The notes under the pieces: generated by a model | What the model was told of the DNA's origin: nothing | Database searches by the model: none | Seen by the model: only the letters and a program-made list of their open reading frames with translations | Made by a program: the position numbers and the translations under genes | NCBI GenBank assembly: GCA_963748625.1 | Contig: CAVVJT010000010.1 | Span: forward strand, 736,001-800,000 | DNA length: 64,000 nt | Source: an uncultured Chloroflexia bacterium | Lineage (GTDB): Bacteria; Chloroflexota; Limnocylindria; Limnocylindrales; CSP1-4 | Direction: 5' to 3' | In this document: positions 10,647-15,794 of the stretch, one piece after another | Position numbering within the stretch: position 1 is the stretch's first letter | Layout: each line of letters starts with the position of its first letter

Positions 10647-10838
10647 GCGCAGCCTCCCGTGCCGGCCGGGGACGCGCCGGAACCACCCTGGACCGGGTCG
10701 CCGGCACCTTCCACCGTGATGATCCCACTGTAGCGGTCGACAGCGTGAACTCCCCGCCACGCAGGGTGAGGACCCCCGCAACGGAGACGATGCACGGGAT
10801 TCCATGCTCGCGCACCACGCGAGACGCGCCACGCGACC

Positions 10839-10926
10839 TGGCGGAGCGGGTGAGATTCGAACTCACGAGGGCTTGCACCCCGGCGGTTTTCAAGACCGCT
10901 GCCATCAACCACTCGGCCACCGCTCC
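10839..10926 (-). tRNA. tRNA-Ser (anticodon TGA)
   Basis: GGAGCGG acceptor stem, GCGGT-CTTGAAA-ACCGC anticodon arm, long variable arm, GTTCGAATC T-loop and encoded CCA. TATCCT -10 box lies just upstream. Confidence 0.97.
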
Positions 10927-10976
10927 ACTTCCGAGGATACCAAGGCCCTCGACGACGGCACCGCCGCTGGCTCAGG

Positions 10977-11171
10977 ATGGCGCCAGGTCGATCGAACTGC
11001 CCGAGGTCAGGCGACCCTTTCTCTGCGGGGGGATGGACCACCGCTGACTTGTTGCCGCCGTTCCACGAGTTCGGCCCGGCGTTCGGCCCGCTCTCACTGG
11101 TCGAGGAGCCCGCACCGCCGGACGACGGGCGGGCTGGCGAGTTCTCGTTCGCCGACGAGGACGCCGACTGA
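10977..11171 (+). CDS. Possible small acidic peptide (uncertain)
   Basis: The 3' half has coding-like codon use (..EFSFADEDAD). The start is unclear and no family is recognised. Confidence 0.25.
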   Translation: MAPGRSNCPRSGDPFSAGGWTTADLLPPFHEFGPAFGPLSLVEEPAPPDDGRAGEFSFADEDAD

Positions 11172-11254
11172 CCTTCCAGGCATCCGCCAGGGCCGACGAC
11201 TCCCGGCCCGCGCGCGGGGCCGCCGGTCCCGCTCCTCACGTCGAAGGTGGAGCC

Positions 11255-12181
11255 TCAGTGCTCCAGTCCTTCCGCGCGGGCCCGGCCGGCAGGGAGGCCG
11301 GCTGCGAATGCGGCAAGGAGCAGCAGCCACATGAGCGACCCGGCGACCGAGACCACCGAGAGGAGACCACTAGCCGCCAGGGCCGCGTCAGGGACGGCCA
11401 TGTAGAACAGGCCCGCAAGAAGGCTCCAGAGGCCCTCGGCGAGCATGCCCCAGGCCGCGACGGCGGCCAGCCGCCACCCTGTCGCTGGCGCCTCGCCCGC
11501 GTGCGCGCCCTCCAGCGCCTCGACCGCGAGCACGGCCCAGGCGATGCCGACTGCGAGGCCCGCCACGTTCGAGACAAGGAACGCGCCGAGCATGTCCTCC
11601 TGCCCCTCCGTGCCAAGGAGCGCCGACGTGGCGATGACCGCCGTGGCGACCGGGACCGCGAGCGCGACGACCAGGAGCCGCCGTTCGGGCAGCCGCGAGG
11701 CACGGGTCCGGGCCGCACGGAGCCCCCGCCCGAGCGCGAGCAGGCCGCCGGCCGCGGCGAGCGTGACCGCAACCTGGTACGCCATCGACCAGGGGCTTGG
11801 CCCGAAGGACTCGGTGTCGCCGGCAAGTCCGTCGATCAGGCCCAGGACGTTGCCCCGGAAGGTGCCCGCGAGCACGCTCGCGGCCAGCAGGGCGCAGCCG
11901 AGCACGAGGGTCCGATGCTCCACGAGGGCGTCAGGATGGCGCACGAACAGTGCGGCGCCGAGGAGGGGGGCGGCGACACGACCGGCGATCGCCAAGGAGA
12001 CGGACAGCGTCGTTGCGGGCTCGTCGATCGACGACGAGAGGAGGTCGCTTGCGGCCCGCCACGCCACCAGGGCGGCGACCGCGAGAAATGCCCACGCGGA
12101 CCCGGGGATCCGAGCCGTCCAGTCGGGCAGGTGCGGCCCGCGCGGCTCCTCCCACGTCGGCTCCGGTCGATCCACCGTCAT
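11255..12181 (-). CDS. Hypothetical multi-pass membrane protein
   Basis: About 8 hydrophobic segments from MTVDRPEPTW, with GC3-rich codons. Confidence 0.7.
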   Translation of the reverse strand: MTVDRPEPTWEEPRGPHLPDWTARIPGSAWAFLAVAALVAWRAASDLLSSSIDEPATTLSVSLAIAGRVAAPLLGAALFVRHPDALVEHRTLVLGCALLAASVLAGTFRGNVLGLIDGLAGDTESFGPSPWSMAYQVAVTLAAAGGLLALGRGLRAARTRASRLPERRLLVVALAVPVATAVIATSALLGTEGQEDMLGAFLVSNVAGLAVGIAWAVLAVEALEGAHAGEAPATGWRLAAVAAWGMLAEGLWSLLAGLFYMAVPDAALAASGLLSVVSVAGSLMWLLLLAAFAAGLPAGRARAEGLEH

Positions 12182-12428
12182 GAGCCCTGCAGTCCCCCTG
12201 TCGCTCCTGCGTCGCGCCCACCCTCGGCCGGCGCAGTCGGCCATGGCAGGACCGGGCTCGCTGCGGGCAGGCGGCCGCCGGTGCGATTGTCGCATCCGAC
12301 ACTCGCCCCGCGAACCTGCATGGGTTGCGGCGAGGCGTCAGGACAGCCTTGCAGATCTGCACGATCGGCCATTGCCAGGGGTCGTGGCGCGCGACCACAC
12401 TGGCGACGGTCAGTCCGAGCGAGGACGA

Positions 12429-14243
12429 GTGATCTTGAGCGCGCCCCGCACCCACAAGCCAGGCAACCAGCAGGCAGCACGCGCCGGCGGCGTGGCAGCC
12501 GATGCGCGCGATCGCGACGCACCCGCCGGCGCGCGCTCCGAGGAGCCCGACAGCCGGCTCGAGTTGCTGGCGGCAGGCGGGAAGGGACCCGTGGACTCGA
12601 GGCTGCTGGGCAGCGTCCAGCGGGCAGCCGGCAATCAGGCGACGGCGCAGCTGGTCAAGGACCGCCTCCACAACGGGGTGTCCACGGTCCAACGGCGGGT
12701 CGTCCCGGGCGAGCAGGGCTGGCTCCGGGGCCTGCTCGCGGCGCGGGCCGGCGATCTCTCCACCCGCATCGGCGCCGACCCGGCCGCACGCCTCCTCGGG
12801 CTCGACATGGGTGACCGCGTGGACACGGTCGCCAGCCTGCGAGCCGACGTGGACGCCTTCGAGGTCGCGGTGGGTTCCGCGCCCGGCTTCACCGACCCGA
12901 ACGCGGCCCGGATCGTGAGCGCGCTCGAGGACTCGCAGACGACCGACGCGCTCGGCACGCGCCTCGTCACGCTGTTCCAGGCATCGGTGGACCCGCTGAT
13001 CGGCCTCGCCTGCCTGGTCACGATCGACCGGGACCGGATCCGGGCGGCCCTGCAGGGGGACGTGGCGAGGACCCAGGCCGCCCTCGCGCGCCTCACGGCG
13101 CGCCTCGCAGGCGTGACCATCCCGCCGGGCCTGACCTCGGCCAACACGTTCCTCACGACCCTGGGCGGCGAGCTCGCCGCACCCGCGACCGCCGGCGTGA
13201 CTGCATCCACAGCAGCGCGTGAGGCCCGCGTCGAGCACATCCTCACCCCGCCCGCAGTCGCCGCGGCACGCGCCGAGGCCGCCCGTGCGGGGCGCCCGCC
13301 GCCCGCCTTCACCGAGCCCGGCTACTACAGCGACCTCATCGAGGCGCTCCACCGGGTTGCGACCGACAGCTACCGGTCCGCTGACCAGGTGAACCGCCGC
13401 GCGCCCATGGACATGAGCTCGGGCGGCCGCGTCGAGCAGATCGCGCTGCAGGCCAAGCAGCGGGTGGACCGGCTGTTCGGCGTGTTCGGCTCCGCCGCCA
13501 CGCCCCGGATGCGGATGGGCGTCAACCTGTTCGACCAGTCGGCACGGGCCGGCGACCCGCGGGACATGGCGCGCTGGTTCGTCGAGGACTCGGGCGACGC
13601 GCGAATCCAGCATGTCGACGAGACCCATCATGCCTTCGGCGTGGACCGCGCGAACGTGATCCGCCAGGACGTGATCGACCACTACAGCAACACCGCGCCC
13701 GCCTCTGGGAACCCGCCTGCCGCGGGGCTGGACGCGCGCCTCGGGCTCGACGGCCCCGAGCGCCTGCGCAGGCTCACCCTGACCGACCGGATGTGGCCGG
13801 GGATGCAGCAGGCCGGCCGCGTCTACCTGACGCCACGTGAGGGCCGGACGCCTGCCCAGACGCGCGCCCTGTACTGGGACCTCTTCAAGACGTGCATGCA
13901 CGAGTACCTGCACACCGCGGCCCATCCCGCCTACACCCGCTGGTATGACCGGCTCCAGGATCCGCACCACAAGATCACGTACCAGGAGGGCTTCACCGAC
14001 TGGTTCACGCTGCGGACGTGGCGCTCGGTGTTCCCGGGCGAGGTTGCCTCGAACACGGCGTTCCGCCAGACCATCCAGGGCTCCGCTGACGTGGACCTGC
14101 CGGCTGCCACGGGCGACCCATCGCACTACCCCGAGATGGAGGAGGCACGACAGATGGAGGGCGAGATCGGGCTCGCGAACATGAAGGCCGCCTACTTCCG
14201 CGGCAACACCGCGGTCCTCGGCGGCGGAAGGCTGCCCCGCTGA
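12429..14243 (+). CDS. Putative secreted/effector zinc metallopeptidase (gluzincin-like) with N-terminal QRxxGN leader
   Basis: N-terminal LGSVQRAAGNQATAQLV..TVQR and C-terminal HEYLH (13899-13913)-X24-EGFT. The start (GTG 12429 or TTG 12435) follows GAGGA. Confidence 0.72.
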   Translation: MILSAPRTHKPGNQQAARAGGVAADARDRDAPAGARSEEPDSRLELLAAGGKGPVDSRLLGSVQRAAGNQATAQLVKDRLHNGVSTVQRRVVPGEQGWLRGLLAARAGDLSTRIGADPAARLLGLDMGDRVDTVASLRADVDAFEVAVGSAPGFTDPNAARIVSALEDSQTTDALGTRLVTLFQASVDPLIGLACLVTIDRDRIRAALQGDVARTQAALARLTARLAGVTIPPGLTSANTFLTTLGGELAAPATAGVTASTAAREARVEHILTPPAVAAARAEAARAGRPPPAFTEPGYYSDLIEALHRVATDSYRSADQVNRRAPMDMSSGGRVEQIALQAKQRVDRLFGVFGSAATPRMRMGVNLFDQSARAGDPRDMARWFVEDSGDARIQHVDETHHAFGVDRANVIRQDVIDHYSNTAPASGNPPAAGLDARLGLDGPERLRRLTLTDRMWPGMQQAGRVYLTPREGRTPAQTRALYWDLFKTCMHEYLHTAAHPAYTRWYDRLQDPHHKITYQEGFTDWFTLRTWRSVFPGEVASNTAFRQTIQGSADVDLPAATGDPSHYPEMEEARQMEGEIGLANMKAAYFRGNTAVLGGGRLPR

Positions 14244-14725
14244 TGAGCGCGACGTCGGACCTGCGGGACGCCGTCACCGGGCGCGTCGATCGCTGGACCT
14301 GGACGCCCGGGCTGGACCCGGCCACCGTCGCCGACGCGCTCGGGACGTCGGTGTCCACGGGACCGATCCAGTACGCCGGCATCCTGCGCCAGGCAGGAAC
14401 GCTGCAGGTTCCGGGAGCTCCGTGGCCGGTGTGGGCGGTCTGGGACGACGACGGGGAGCTCCTCCTCATCGAGGTACTTGAGCCGCCGGCAGCGCCGAGA
14501 GCCGCCGAGGCCATCGCCGCATTCGGCGAGCCGGAGGCGAGGATCGGCCGAGCCCGCGGCCCGCACCCCAGCAATGAGCAGCTCGCCTACCCCTCGCGAG
14601 GCTTCACCCTGTTCGCGTGGCTCGAGGCTGCGCCCGCTGCCGTGTGGCTGTACCGCCCGATGGATTTCGACAACTACGTTGCCGAGCTCGGCGCGACGAT
14701 TCCCCCTACCCGCCAGCGACGTTGA
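14243..14725 (+). CDS. Hypothetical protein coupled to the upstream peptidase (candidate immunity/partner)
   Basis: TGATG stop/start overlap; 160 aa with [13 protein letters not shown] and GC3-rich codons. Confidence 0.7.
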
Positions 14726-14740
14726 CGAGGAAGGACCGCC

Positions 14741-14941
14741 ATGGACCATGCGAACGCCCGCGTCGAGCGGGACCACCGGACCCCCGCCCAGACCCCAGCA
14801 TCACGGCCGCGGCCGGAGCGGAGTCCCGAGCAGGACATCCTCGAGCTCCAGCGGACAGCCGGCAATCGGGCCGTCGCGGAAGCGCTGGCGCCGGTCCAGC
14901 GCCACAGCCTCGATCCCGAGAATATGGAGCAGCAGCCGTAG
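14741..14941 (+). CDS. 66-aa peptide consisting mainly of the [13 protein letters not shown] motif
   Basis: Strong RBS (GAGGAAGGA) before the ATG. It carries the same motif as the N-terminus of the 12429 protein. Confidence 0.75.
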
Positions 14942-15038
14942 GTGCGGCGGACCTGCCGGCAGTAGCGCCGCCCGTACCGCCTCGCCGACGCCTCACCCCC
15001 GGACGGGGCGATCCGCGCGGACCCGGTATCGTTCGGGC

Positions 15039-15794
15039 GTGATCCGTGCGCCCTTTGCCAACCGCGACCTCGCGGACGGCCATCTCATCGATCTACGGGA
15101 CGTCGTCAAGGACTACGTCACCGACGCCGGGCCGTTCCGTGCGCTCAAGGAGGTCAGCCTCCAGGTGGACGCGGGCGAGTTCATCGCGGTCGTCGGGCGG
15201 TCGGGGTGTGGCAAGTCCACGCTGATGAACATGATCACCGGCATCGACCGCGCCACGGCCGGCACGCTCCACGTCGGGGGCACCGAGCTCGCGCGGCTGT
15301 CCGAGAGCCGCATGGCGCAGTGGCGGGGCCGGACCGTGGGCGTGATCTTCCAGTTCTTCCAGCTGCTGCCCACGCTGACGGTCGTCGAGAACGTGATGCT
15401 TCCGATGGACTTCGCGGGGCTCTGGTCGCCCAAGGAGCGCTACGAGCGCGCGATGGCGCTGCTCGAGATGGTGGATATGACCGACCAGGCGACCAAGCTG
15501 CCGGCCTCCACCTCGGGCGGCCAGCAGCAGCGGACCGCCATCGCCCGGTCCCTTGCCAACGACCCGCCGATCATCGTCGCCGATGAGCCGACCGGCAACC
15601 TCGACGCCGCCACGGCCGAGGAGGTGTTCGAGCTGTTCGAATCCCTCGTCCAGGGTGGCCGCACCATCGTGATGGTCACGCACGACCCCGACCTGGCGGT
15701 GAGGACCCGGCGCACGGTGCACATGGTCGACGGGCGGATCATGGACGGCACGCTCGACCCCGCCGCGGCCGCGCTCGCGCCCGCCTCGATCTGA
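15039..15794 (+). CDS. ABC transporter ATP-binding protein (LolD/MacB-type)
   Basis: Walker A GRSGCGKS, signature [20 protein letters not shown] and MVTHD. Confidence 0.93.

Follow-up and report, generated by a model that had tools for sequence, protein, structure and literature searches.

In extracellular contractile injection systems (eCIS), DUF4157 has been described as the core domain, lying N-terminal or adjacent to toxins (Geller 2021, PMC8213781). For AlgoCIS, the PROCIS preprint (bioRxiv 10.64898/2026.05.27.728243) reports that a disordered N-terminal domain upstream of DUF4157 is needed for cargo loading, that DUF4157 itself is dispensable, and that loading is mediated by an AAA+ protein; it also describes loading sequences as not conserved between systems, and a further report states that no specific conserved signal sequence was detected in eCIS cargo (PMC11297309). 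Zhang et al. 2012 (PMC3482391) predicted the PVC-metallopeptidase, their name for DUF4157/eCIS_core (PF13699), to be a releasing peptidase and mention many PVC-type toxins without adjacent immunity genes. Here we describe a module of three genes in a 64,000-nucleotide stretch of DNA (the window; positions 736,001 to 800,000 of contig CAVVJT010000010.1, assembly GCA_963748625.1) from an uncultured Chloroflexia bacterium of the CSP1-4 lineage. Gene 1 encodes a 604-residue zincin-like protein with a short N-terminal leader motif, gene 2 encodes a 160-residue partner, and gene 3 encodes a 66-residue protein built around the same leader. The three genes are one conserved cassette, and we favor, with some reserve, the reading that they form an orphan cargo cassette of the genome's own eCIS, consisting of a cargo, its inhibitor, and a leader-only mini-protein.

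The cassette can be set beside three kinds of described system. Like eCIS cargo (AlgoCIS Cgo1 and Cgo2, PVC Pdp1 and Pnf, and the eCIS-associated toxins, EATs, of Geller 2021 and Danov 2024), the gene 1 product has a disordered, hydrophilic N-terminus followed by a putative enzymatic domain; a complete eCIS, AAA+ ATPase included, is present in the genome, and the N-terminal segment of gene 1 is common to the DUF4157 protein of that eCIS locus. Such cargo lies in or next to the eCIS operon, usually at its 3′ end, whereas the cassette is ~198 kb away, lacks DUF4157 both in the gene 1 protein and in neighboring genes, and carries a tag with a defined sequence motif. With DUF4157/eCIS_core proteins (PF13699; for example, Streptomyces Sle2), the cassette shares the leader, which stands immediately upstream of DUF4157 in those proteins; an HExxH motif is also present in gene 1, and the 66-residue peptide has the N-terminal style of eCIS_core proteins and their VQR-plus-acidic tail unit. 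In contrast to them, gene 1 has its putative third zinc ligand 24 residues downstream, in a domain of ~300 residues (the PF13699 model is 79 positions long). The polymorphic toxin-immunity pairs of Zhang et al. 2012 likewise place a constant N-terminal trafficking element before variable toxin domains and have a small, co-oriented, overlapping downstream gene, here gene 2, whose product is predicted to bind the toxin. The cassette differs from those pairs in that the constant element is a leader of ~30 residues rather than a large trafficking domain and in that the module has a third, leader-only gene.

The layout had been proposed in the original prediction, and every detail of it was found again when the sequence was re-read: a disordered N-terminus with the leader and a following VQR, an HEYLH-X24-EGFT zinc site, TGATG coupling, a strong ribosome-binding site (RBS), and a 66-residue leader open reading frame (ORF) (Table 1). 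The gene 1 reading frame translates to 604 amino acids with zero internal stops. Its leader (consensus LxxΦQRxAGNxAΦxxL...ΦQR, or LQRxAGNxAV...VQR) spans residues ~61 to 89 (SVQRAAGNQATAQLV...STVQRR), and HEYLH corresponds to residues 491 to 495, followed after 24 more residues by E520 (YQEGFTD). The frame is open upstream as far as 11445, in a stretch shared with a membrane-protein ORF on the minus strand; the GTG start at 12429 has AGGA 3 nt upstream and is in register, in the alignment, with the starts called in homologues. The gene 1 stop codon (TGA, 14241-14243) overlaps the gene 2 start codon (ATG, 14243-14245). RBS-like sequences are also found 5′ of the homologous small ORFs in related loci. 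The gene 3 product has a His/Arg/Asp-rich N-terminus, then the leader, then a short tail. The G+C content of the window is ~72%. A promoter and terminator scan of 10800-15400 gave no promoter-like sites; the single terminator-like site, which lies within gene 1 on the minus strand, did not exceed the yield of shuffled sequences. A search of sequencing runs gave no expression data: no RNA run containing the sequence was listed, and the DNA runs containing it had small shares (at most 0.16).

Table 1. Cassette features and the eight leader-bearing ORFs of the genome. Positions without a contig label are those of the window, which starts at C10:736,001.
Feature	Position	Strand	Evidence or remark
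Gene 1 (leader-bearing ORF 1), 604-aa leader-tagged zincin-like protein P0001	12429..14243	+	Translation, homologue alignment, AF2 model
Leader of gene 1, DSRLLGSVQRAAGNQATAQLV...STVQRR	12594..12698	+	Leader HMM 23.1 bits; 41 bits, E 1.3e-9 per genome
Putative zinc site, HEYLH + 24 residues + E520 in YQEGFTD	13899..13988	+	Conservation, predicted interface
Gene 2, 160-aa partner P0025, predicted active-site-covering inhibitor/immunity protein	14243..14725	+	
RBS of gene 3, GAGGAAGGA	14727..14735	+	5 nt before ATG
Gene 3 (leader-bearing ORF 2), 66-aa leader-only mini-protein	14741..14941	+	Leader plus flanks, nt 14825-14905
Leader-bearing ORF 3, short protein	C4:49403-49888	+	No Pfam family
Leader-bearing ORF 4, ~530-aa protein	Contig C7		
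Leader-bearing ORF 5, 301-aa DUF922 protein	C10:1375949-1376851 (L023:5949-6851)	-	HEAGH; E 2e-11; far from eCIS locus
Leader-bearing ORF 6, repeat-rich ~650-aa protein	C10:518-520 kb	-	Units like PEEQITATAPRPxNQ; beside eCIS locus
Leader-bearing ORF 7, 1035-aa protein	C10:533-536 kb		
Leader-bearing ORF 8, DUF4157/eCIS_core protein	C10:532558-533300	-	

A scan of 185,579 species genomes recovered 13 related loci. The closest are in three Chloroflexia metagenome-assembled genomes (MAGs), at 70 to 75% identity; those in Actinomycetota (Dermatophilaceae, Microlunatus aurantiacus, Ornithinimicrobium sp., Acidimicrobiia, and others) are at 46 to 59%. Twelve loci are complete, the 13th (L021) being cut at a contig end. 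A gene 2 homologue lies directly 3′ of gene 1 in all 12, and a leader ORF of 61 to 76 residues comes next, also in 12/12 by motif scan (11/12 by tblastn at an E value of ≤0.01, which missed L013). The co-occurrence in other genomes on which the original prediction depended is therefore present in every complete locus. Flanking genes are common only to close relatives and are otherwise unrelated. Because gene order is kept in 12/12 complete loci while the flanks are unrelated, we conclude that the three genes are one conserved cassette. The cassette proteins belong to no curated family: neither Pfam nor NCBIfam gave a match to any of the three at an E value of ≤1, and the 23 gene 1 homologues found in a collection of 5.8 billion clusters carry no Pfam domain. 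No relatives of gene 1 were found on viral contigs.

A search for the leader throughout the genome, which had been suggested as a check of the original prediction, connected the cassette to an eCIS. We combined a pattern scan with a 24-column hidden Markov model (HMM) run over all six-frame ORFs (4.6 Mb). Seven matches scored 18.9 to 35.1 bits, against ~11 bits for the best evident chance matches; an eighth match, within the eCIS locus, is weaker (9.5 bits) and fits the same pattern. Among the eight leader ORFs is the eCIS_core protein of a complete eCIS locus (C10:~533-551 kb) that encodes a sheath, two tubes, CIS_tube+LysM, VgrG, PAAR, gp25, Baseplate_J, Tail_P2_I, Pvc16_N, and an AAA ATPase. 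In that protein, ...LHLQRTAGNQGVLQML stands directly before the DUF4157 domain in the same ORF, and SSVQREAEPEEDDQLG forms the C-terminus. Three of the eight leader ORFs are in or within ~15 kb of the eCIS locus. PF13699, PF04984, and PF06841 were searched genome-wide, and all matches map to C10:532-545 kb; for these three families, the earlier statement that the window holds no eCIS structural genes is correct. The leader-bearing DUF922 protein on the same contig is, from its sequence, a candidate for a second orphan HExxH-type cargo.

The short leader ORF on contig C4 (L008:9403-9888) continues for ~75 residues past VQR and has the C-terminus ...IVASSYTPGAGNAW; it may be another small cargo. 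Beside the eCIS, a minus-strand region (C10:511570-520619, L005) encodes the leader repeat protein, an annexin-like ORF, a 1,415-residue ORF with an SsdA_C deaminase-toxin C-terminus, and a GerE/TPR regulator.

The leader is also found on many other proteins. A profile built from the 13 small peptides matched 276 proteins at an E value of ≤0.001 among 1.84 billion representatives; the figures that follow are for the 150 of them that were listed. The leader lies within the first 30 residues in 139 and within the first 60 in 143, on proteins of 53 to 1,234 residues with varied C-termini, so it is enriched at the N-termini of variable proteins, as had been supposed. Q...GN is present in 149/150, and [VILA]QR follows within 45 residues past GN in 122. 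A Pfam family (E value of ≤1e-4) was assigned to 31 proteins, leaving 119 without one. The domains behind the leader are eCIS_core (11 proteins, one also with a deaminase domain), PG_binding_1 (7), DUF922 (3), annexin (2, one also with DUF6782), Endonuclea_NS_2 (2), and the Pput2613 deaminase (1), with Tox-PLDMTX, Ntox34, Peptidase_M15_4, T6SS_HCP, and Stv found once each. Two short leader proteins (P0097 and P0139) have Cys-rich tails past VQR (for example, ...VQRSCCDSCGSGG...), and two others (P0062 and P0047) carry tandem leaders; all four may be truncated metagenomic ORFs.

The cassette-bearing genomes have eCIS as well. All 13 have eCIS_core matches, and an eCIS tube gene was found in 12, the exception being a fragmented 3.1-Mb MAG; each has 1 to 10 leader matches (E value of ≤0.001). 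Among the carriers of both cassette and eCIS are two cultured strains, Microlunatus aurantiacus JCM 16548 and Ornithinimicrobium sp. F0845. We also examined 151 genomes sampled evenly from the phylum, with a leader threshold of an E value of ≤0.01, and found the leader in 13, a tube gene in 29, and eCIS_core in 26. A tube gene is present in 10/13 leader-positive but only 19/138 leader-negative genomes (one-sided Fisher P value of 3e-6, which is overstated, as relatives are not independent). In six cases from five sample genomes, a leader is found upstream of an eCIS_core match, on the same strand and contig, at a distance of a few tens to a few hundred bases. The eCIS_core proteins of 10 cassette-bearing genomes (L024-L033) all consist of a His/Asp/Arg-rich start, a leader (L.LQR.AGNAGV), DUF4157, and a tail. 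Together with the eCIS_core protein of the present genome, these cases place the leader at DUF4157 N-termini, where the original prediction had put such motifs. All 10 tails contain one to four units of ΦVQR[EQHD] plus an acidic run (for example, AVQRDEAPEEE...FVQREEAPEEE); judged by sequence, the ΦVQR-plus-acidic unit may be a docking or cleavage module, and no description of it was found in the literature searched. Nor did we find a description of the leader motif there, although subscription journals and preprint supplements were outside reach and it may be in print.

The structural model of gene 1 points to a modular protein. The AlphaFold2 (AF2) model has a mean predicted local distance difference test score (pLDDT) of 83.6 and a predicted template modeling score (pTM) of 0.80. 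Residues 1 to ~90 are modeled as disordered, ~90 to 290 as a helical ARM/HEAT-like domain, and ~300 to 604 as a putative thermolysin-like catalytic domain; pLDDT falls below 50 at residues 1 to 53 and 81 to 88, and the leader is a low-confidence helix. In structure comparisons with VIA-align, residues ~88 to 250 matched ARM/HEAT-type repeats and residues ~303 to 604 matched zinc-peptidase catalytic domains with Z scores of 6.5 to 8.1. The matches were the M1 aminopeptidase catalytic domains 5zi5 (Z 8.1, 158 residues aligned), 1z1w (Z 7.8, 157 aligned), and 6oiu (Z 7.7, 162 aligned), a putative hydrolase from Chloroflexus (3cmn; Z 8.1, 223 aligned), and thermolysin (5a3y; Z 6.5, 152 aligned), followed by M32 and M3 peptidases and ACE2. 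Across 24 sequences (alignment A1), H491, E492, H495, and E520 each reach at least 90% conservation, and the leader region, HEYLH, and QEGFTD are all conserved in the homologue alignment. The zinc-site residues lie on helices 475-497 and 512-534 of the model, and the four residues belong to one predicted interface patch.

From the modest fold matches and the conserved HExxH..E taken jointly, we describe the C-terminal half of gene 1 as modestly gluzincin-like in predicted fold and place it in no family. The original prediction of a gluzincin-like effector thus stands as regards motif conservation and, modestly, fold, and does not extend to membership in any sequence family. Like gluzincins (clan MA(E)), gene 1 combines HExxH with a downstream Glu in an xEGF-type motif (YQEGFTD), and the best fold matches of residues ~321 to 604 are M1 catalytic domains and thermolysin (M4). 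The HExxH-to-Glu spacer is 18 residues in M1 peptidases and 19 in thermolysin; gene 1 differs in having a spacer of 24 residues and a helical repeat domain that precedes the catalytic part. Against PF13699, gene 1 gave no match at an E value of ≤1, and its motif is HEYLHTAA, not HExxHxxQ. The Protein Atlas returned only unnamed clusters for residues 295 to 604, one with Peptidase_M78 on 18% of its members. Kinship with the leader-bearing DUF6782 protein (P0083) was considered and rejected: hhalign with A1 aligned the leader alone, at a probability of 1.3%, and the catalytic domains showed no relation.

The partner encoded by gene 2 has 14 homologues and no Pfam family. Its model has a pLDDT of 90, and the nearest folds are DUF4309 YjgB (Z 8.3, 118 residues aligned) and YfeY (Z 7.7), both of unknown function; Foldseek against the PDB gave nothing at an E value of ≤0.001, and the Protein Atlas gave only unnamed clusters, with DUF6392, DUF7738, and DUF6301 as weak named leads. 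A C-terminal tail, PTRxRR (PTRQRR here), is kept in most of 20 aligned sequences (alignment A2). The complex of gene 1 and gene 2 products was predicted with ESMFold2 from A1 and A2, in three runs and with three controls. The runs scored 0.89, 0.90, and 0.89 and the controls 0.00, 0.00, and 0.69; the mark applied to these scores is passed by 58/80 solved complexes and by 2/110 mismatched pairs. At least 94% of contacts are the same from run to run, and the partner pLDDT is at least 91. On gene 1, the predicted interface comprises residues 488, 491-492, 495-497, 499-500, 503, 507, and 519-520, that is, the entire putative zinc site, together with strand 456-466; on gene 2, it comprises residues 38 to 53 and the C-terminal tail, residues 150 to 160.

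The model supports, rather than demonstrates, binding of gene 2 to the gene 1 product in such a way that the HExxH..E site is covered, and the predicted complex looks as one with a cognate inhibitor would. An immunity partner, as originally proposed, is supported to this extent, by a complex model that barely passes its controls (0.89 versus 0.69). We know of no solved complexes of this kind, and template memory in the model seems unlikely. Some known metalloprotease inhibitors, namely serralysin inhibitors and the potato carboxypeptidase inhibitor, place a terminal tail in the active site; gene 2 would resemble them in its terminal tail, whose predicted place is within the catalytic cleft, alongside an edge strand, but it has no sequence or fold relation to them.

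Gene 3 is, on the evidence of its sequence conservation, a real gene and a conserved family of its own. Invariant positions across the family are L, Q, G, N, A, and V, followed by Q, R, H, L, P, and E, and the proteins end within ~10 residues past VQRH.L.PE. In the conserved block (31 ungapped codons), there are 1,230 third-position differences, against 630 at first and 515 at second positions. This excess of third-position differences, with the conserved tail and ending, is the reason for calling gene 3 real. The possibility that the 66-residue ORF is a decayed 5′ fragment was ruled out by the conserved stop position, the conserved tail, and the codon-position pattern; its standing as a conserved family, and not a leftover, had not been foreseen in the original prediction. 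Short proteins of the VQRH.L.PE type make up ~20 representative clusters among the top matches of the small-peptide profile. The start of the family (for example, MMVPQHDHDNQHD...) is like that of eCIS_core proteins and is followed by the leader and one VQRH.LDPEEE unit. Since the start, the leader, and the VQR-plus-acidic unit are all alike, the gene 3 protein appears to resemble eCIS_core proteins minus the peptidase domain. Sle2, a small DUF4157 protein of Streptomyces lividans, is reported to have eluted together with the tube initiator and with the N-terminal part of the cargo protein Sle1 (PMC13277306). By analogy, the gene 3 mini-protein could dock where Sle2 does.

In the mechanism that we propose, the gene 1 product would be an eCIS cargo or effector whose first ~90 disordered residues carry the leader. 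The leader would be a loading tag, read by the AAA+ ATPase and/or by a tube-initiator/eCIS_core adaptor, and might also serve as a processing site. The putative thermolysin-like zinc-peptidase domain (HEYLH-X24-E) would provide a toxic activity. The product of the coupled gene 2, presumed cytoplasmic, would sit on the catalytic cleft with its PTRxRR tail along the edge strand and would keep the peptidase silent in the producer, acting as immunity protein or safety catch. The gene 3 protein might be co-loaded, or it might serve in loading as a small adaptor or a competitor, which is the least certain part of the proposal. Loading, proteolysis, toxicity, and immunity are activities that we infer for the cassette proteins; the computations themselves establish how the cassette is built and conserved, that its genes occur together, that its leader recurs on other proteins and goes with eCIS genes, and what folds and interface are predicted.

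A number of observations weigh against this proposal. The cassette is downstream of the eCIS locus on the same contig, with no eCIS gene nearby, and in relatives it is ~282 kb (G001) or ~736 kb (G004) from the eCIS where both share a contig and is on another contig in the remainder; it is an orphan, as the original prediction had it. DUF4157 was found neither in gene 1 (E value of ≤1) nor in its neighbors, and published classifiers use both. In the phylum sample, 3/13 leader-positive genomes have no tube match (G119 and G067, with marginal leader E values, and G141, with an E value of 4e-6 and 91% completeness), and 19/29 tube-positive genomes have no leader match. The zincin fold matches are in a range (Z 6.5 to 8.1) that VIA-align rates as middling for helical models. 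The suggested Foldseek comparison with gluzincins was unproductive, with nothing in the PDB matching the gene 1 model at an E value of ≤0.001; an A1 profile run against PDB sequences yielded a sole match at chance level (E value of 1.1), and neither a sequence family in Pfam or NCBIfam nor a solved relative was found for gene 1. The margin of the complex over its best control, +0.20, equals the minimum required. That control, at 0.69, was gene 2 paired with an unrelated 680-residue protein in place of gene 1, and the gene 2 protein may be "sticky" in the complex model. Gene 1 is split over two overlapping frames in 2/13 loci, both in Actinomycetota MAGs (L020:6812-8621 and L022:6914-8627), which may be due to decay, to a frameshift, or to misassembly. 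For gene 3, the role is proposed from resemblance only.

We weighed four other explanations. The leader could be mainly a processing signal, with ΦQR cut or recognized by the eCIS_core protease to release cargo and with loading left to general N-terminal disorder. This would be compatible with the cassette encoding cargo and agrees with the releasing role predicted for the PVC-metallopeptidase (Zhang et al. 2012, PMC3482391), with the recurrence of ΦQR inside the leader, at its end, and one to four more times in the tails of 10/10 eCIS_core proteins, and with the [VILA]QR that follows GN in 122/150 listed leader proteins. We regard it as rather unlikely to be the leader's main function: the AGNxAV core is more conserved than expected of a simple cleavage site, and the AlgoCIS work, as reported in the preprint, suggests that the N-terminal region is the loading element, with the N-terminal domain required and DUF4157 dispensable (bioRxiv 10.64898/2026.05.27.728243). 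Gene 1 might instead be a house-keeping maturation peptidase of leader proteins, with gene 2 as a regulator and the 66-residue peptide as a substrate or decoy. The invariant VQRH.L.PE tail beside the leader in that peptide, the predicted substrate-like position of the gene 2 tail (PTRQRR) in the cleft, and the constant association of the three genes would all suit such a role. It is improbable, however, given that the peptidase is itself leader-tagged, like the deaminase, nuclease, and papain-like toxin domains behind the same leader, and that the cassette is rare (13 of ~185,000 species genomes; 23 database clusters). Because the leader and eCIS_core are far commoner than the cassette, most leader systems work without it.

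A connection to eCIS might also be illusory, with the leader a general helical motif for some other export route or cytoplasmic assembly and co-occurrence due to shared ancestry. Physical linkage of the cassette to the eCIS locus is absent, 3/13 leader-positive genomes are without a tube match, and kinship among genomes inflates the association of leader and tube. Against this, the leader and the eCIS_core domain are in one ORF in many genomes of two phyla, eCIS_core is present in 13/13 cassette genomes versus 26/151 of the phylum sample, and none of the three cassette proteins has Sec or type VII secretion system (T7SS)-type features; we judge the explanation very improbable. The small gene, with its conserved leader-like helix and short tail, also recalls the precursor of a ribosomally synthesized and posttranslationally modified peptide (RiPP), for which gene 1 would be the leader peptidase, and P0097 and P0139 are short leader proteins with Cys-rich tails. 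We rejected such a natural-product system, to which we assign a close to negligible probability: there is no modifying enzyme and no transporter conserved in the flanks, the putative enzyme bears the leader itself, and large toxin domains and eCIS_core are likewise found behind it. An orphan eCIS cargo cassette remains the reading that we prefer.

Relative to the published descriptions consulted, three elements of this reading go further: a leader, defined from sequence, that is common to operon-encoded and distant candidate cargo; a peptidase-like effector family without a curated match, with a predicted tail-plug inhibitor; and a conserved leader-only mini-protein. If the leader is indeed a tag, it would allow genome-wide cargo prediction past the operon neighborhood and would offer a defined handle for loading foreign proteins into eCIS of this lineage. 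The retention of the leader-only mini-protein across two phyla calls for a function, and the cultured carriers make these ideas directly testable. A bolder proposal, to which we give a minor though real chance, is that the leader is the sequence-defined loading tag of a whole eCIS lineage (Actinomycetota, Chloroflexota, and beyond) and that the 66-residue protein is its dedicated trans-acting loading factor. In that event, the full cargo set, even hundreds of kilobases from the machine, could be read from a genome with one small profile, and the 66-residue protein would be a mini eCIS_core without the peptidase domain that pairs with the zincin cargo and primes or gates its loading. To our knowledge, a trans-acting leader-only loading factor has been described for no contractile injection system.

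The cassette's neighbors in the window include ABC_tran, FtsX, and RDD proteins by Pfam. A functional tie to the flanking ABC transporter genes was considered and dismissed, as such neighbors occur in just two or three loci. Divergent from gene 1, a 346-residue predicted membrane protein (11255-12295, minus strand) has no Pfam family and is conserved in no related locus. Immediately upstream of the cassette is a tRNA-Ser(TGA) gene (10839-10926, minus strand). The tRNA, the membrane-protein ORF, and the cassette together lie between an FtsX permease gene (7513-~9900, minus strand) and an ABC ATPase gene (ending at 15794, plus strand), a placement that suggests insertion at a tRNA-linked spot. 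One Chloroflexia locus (L012, 6667-6792) has the tRNA-Ser neighbor in common with the window.

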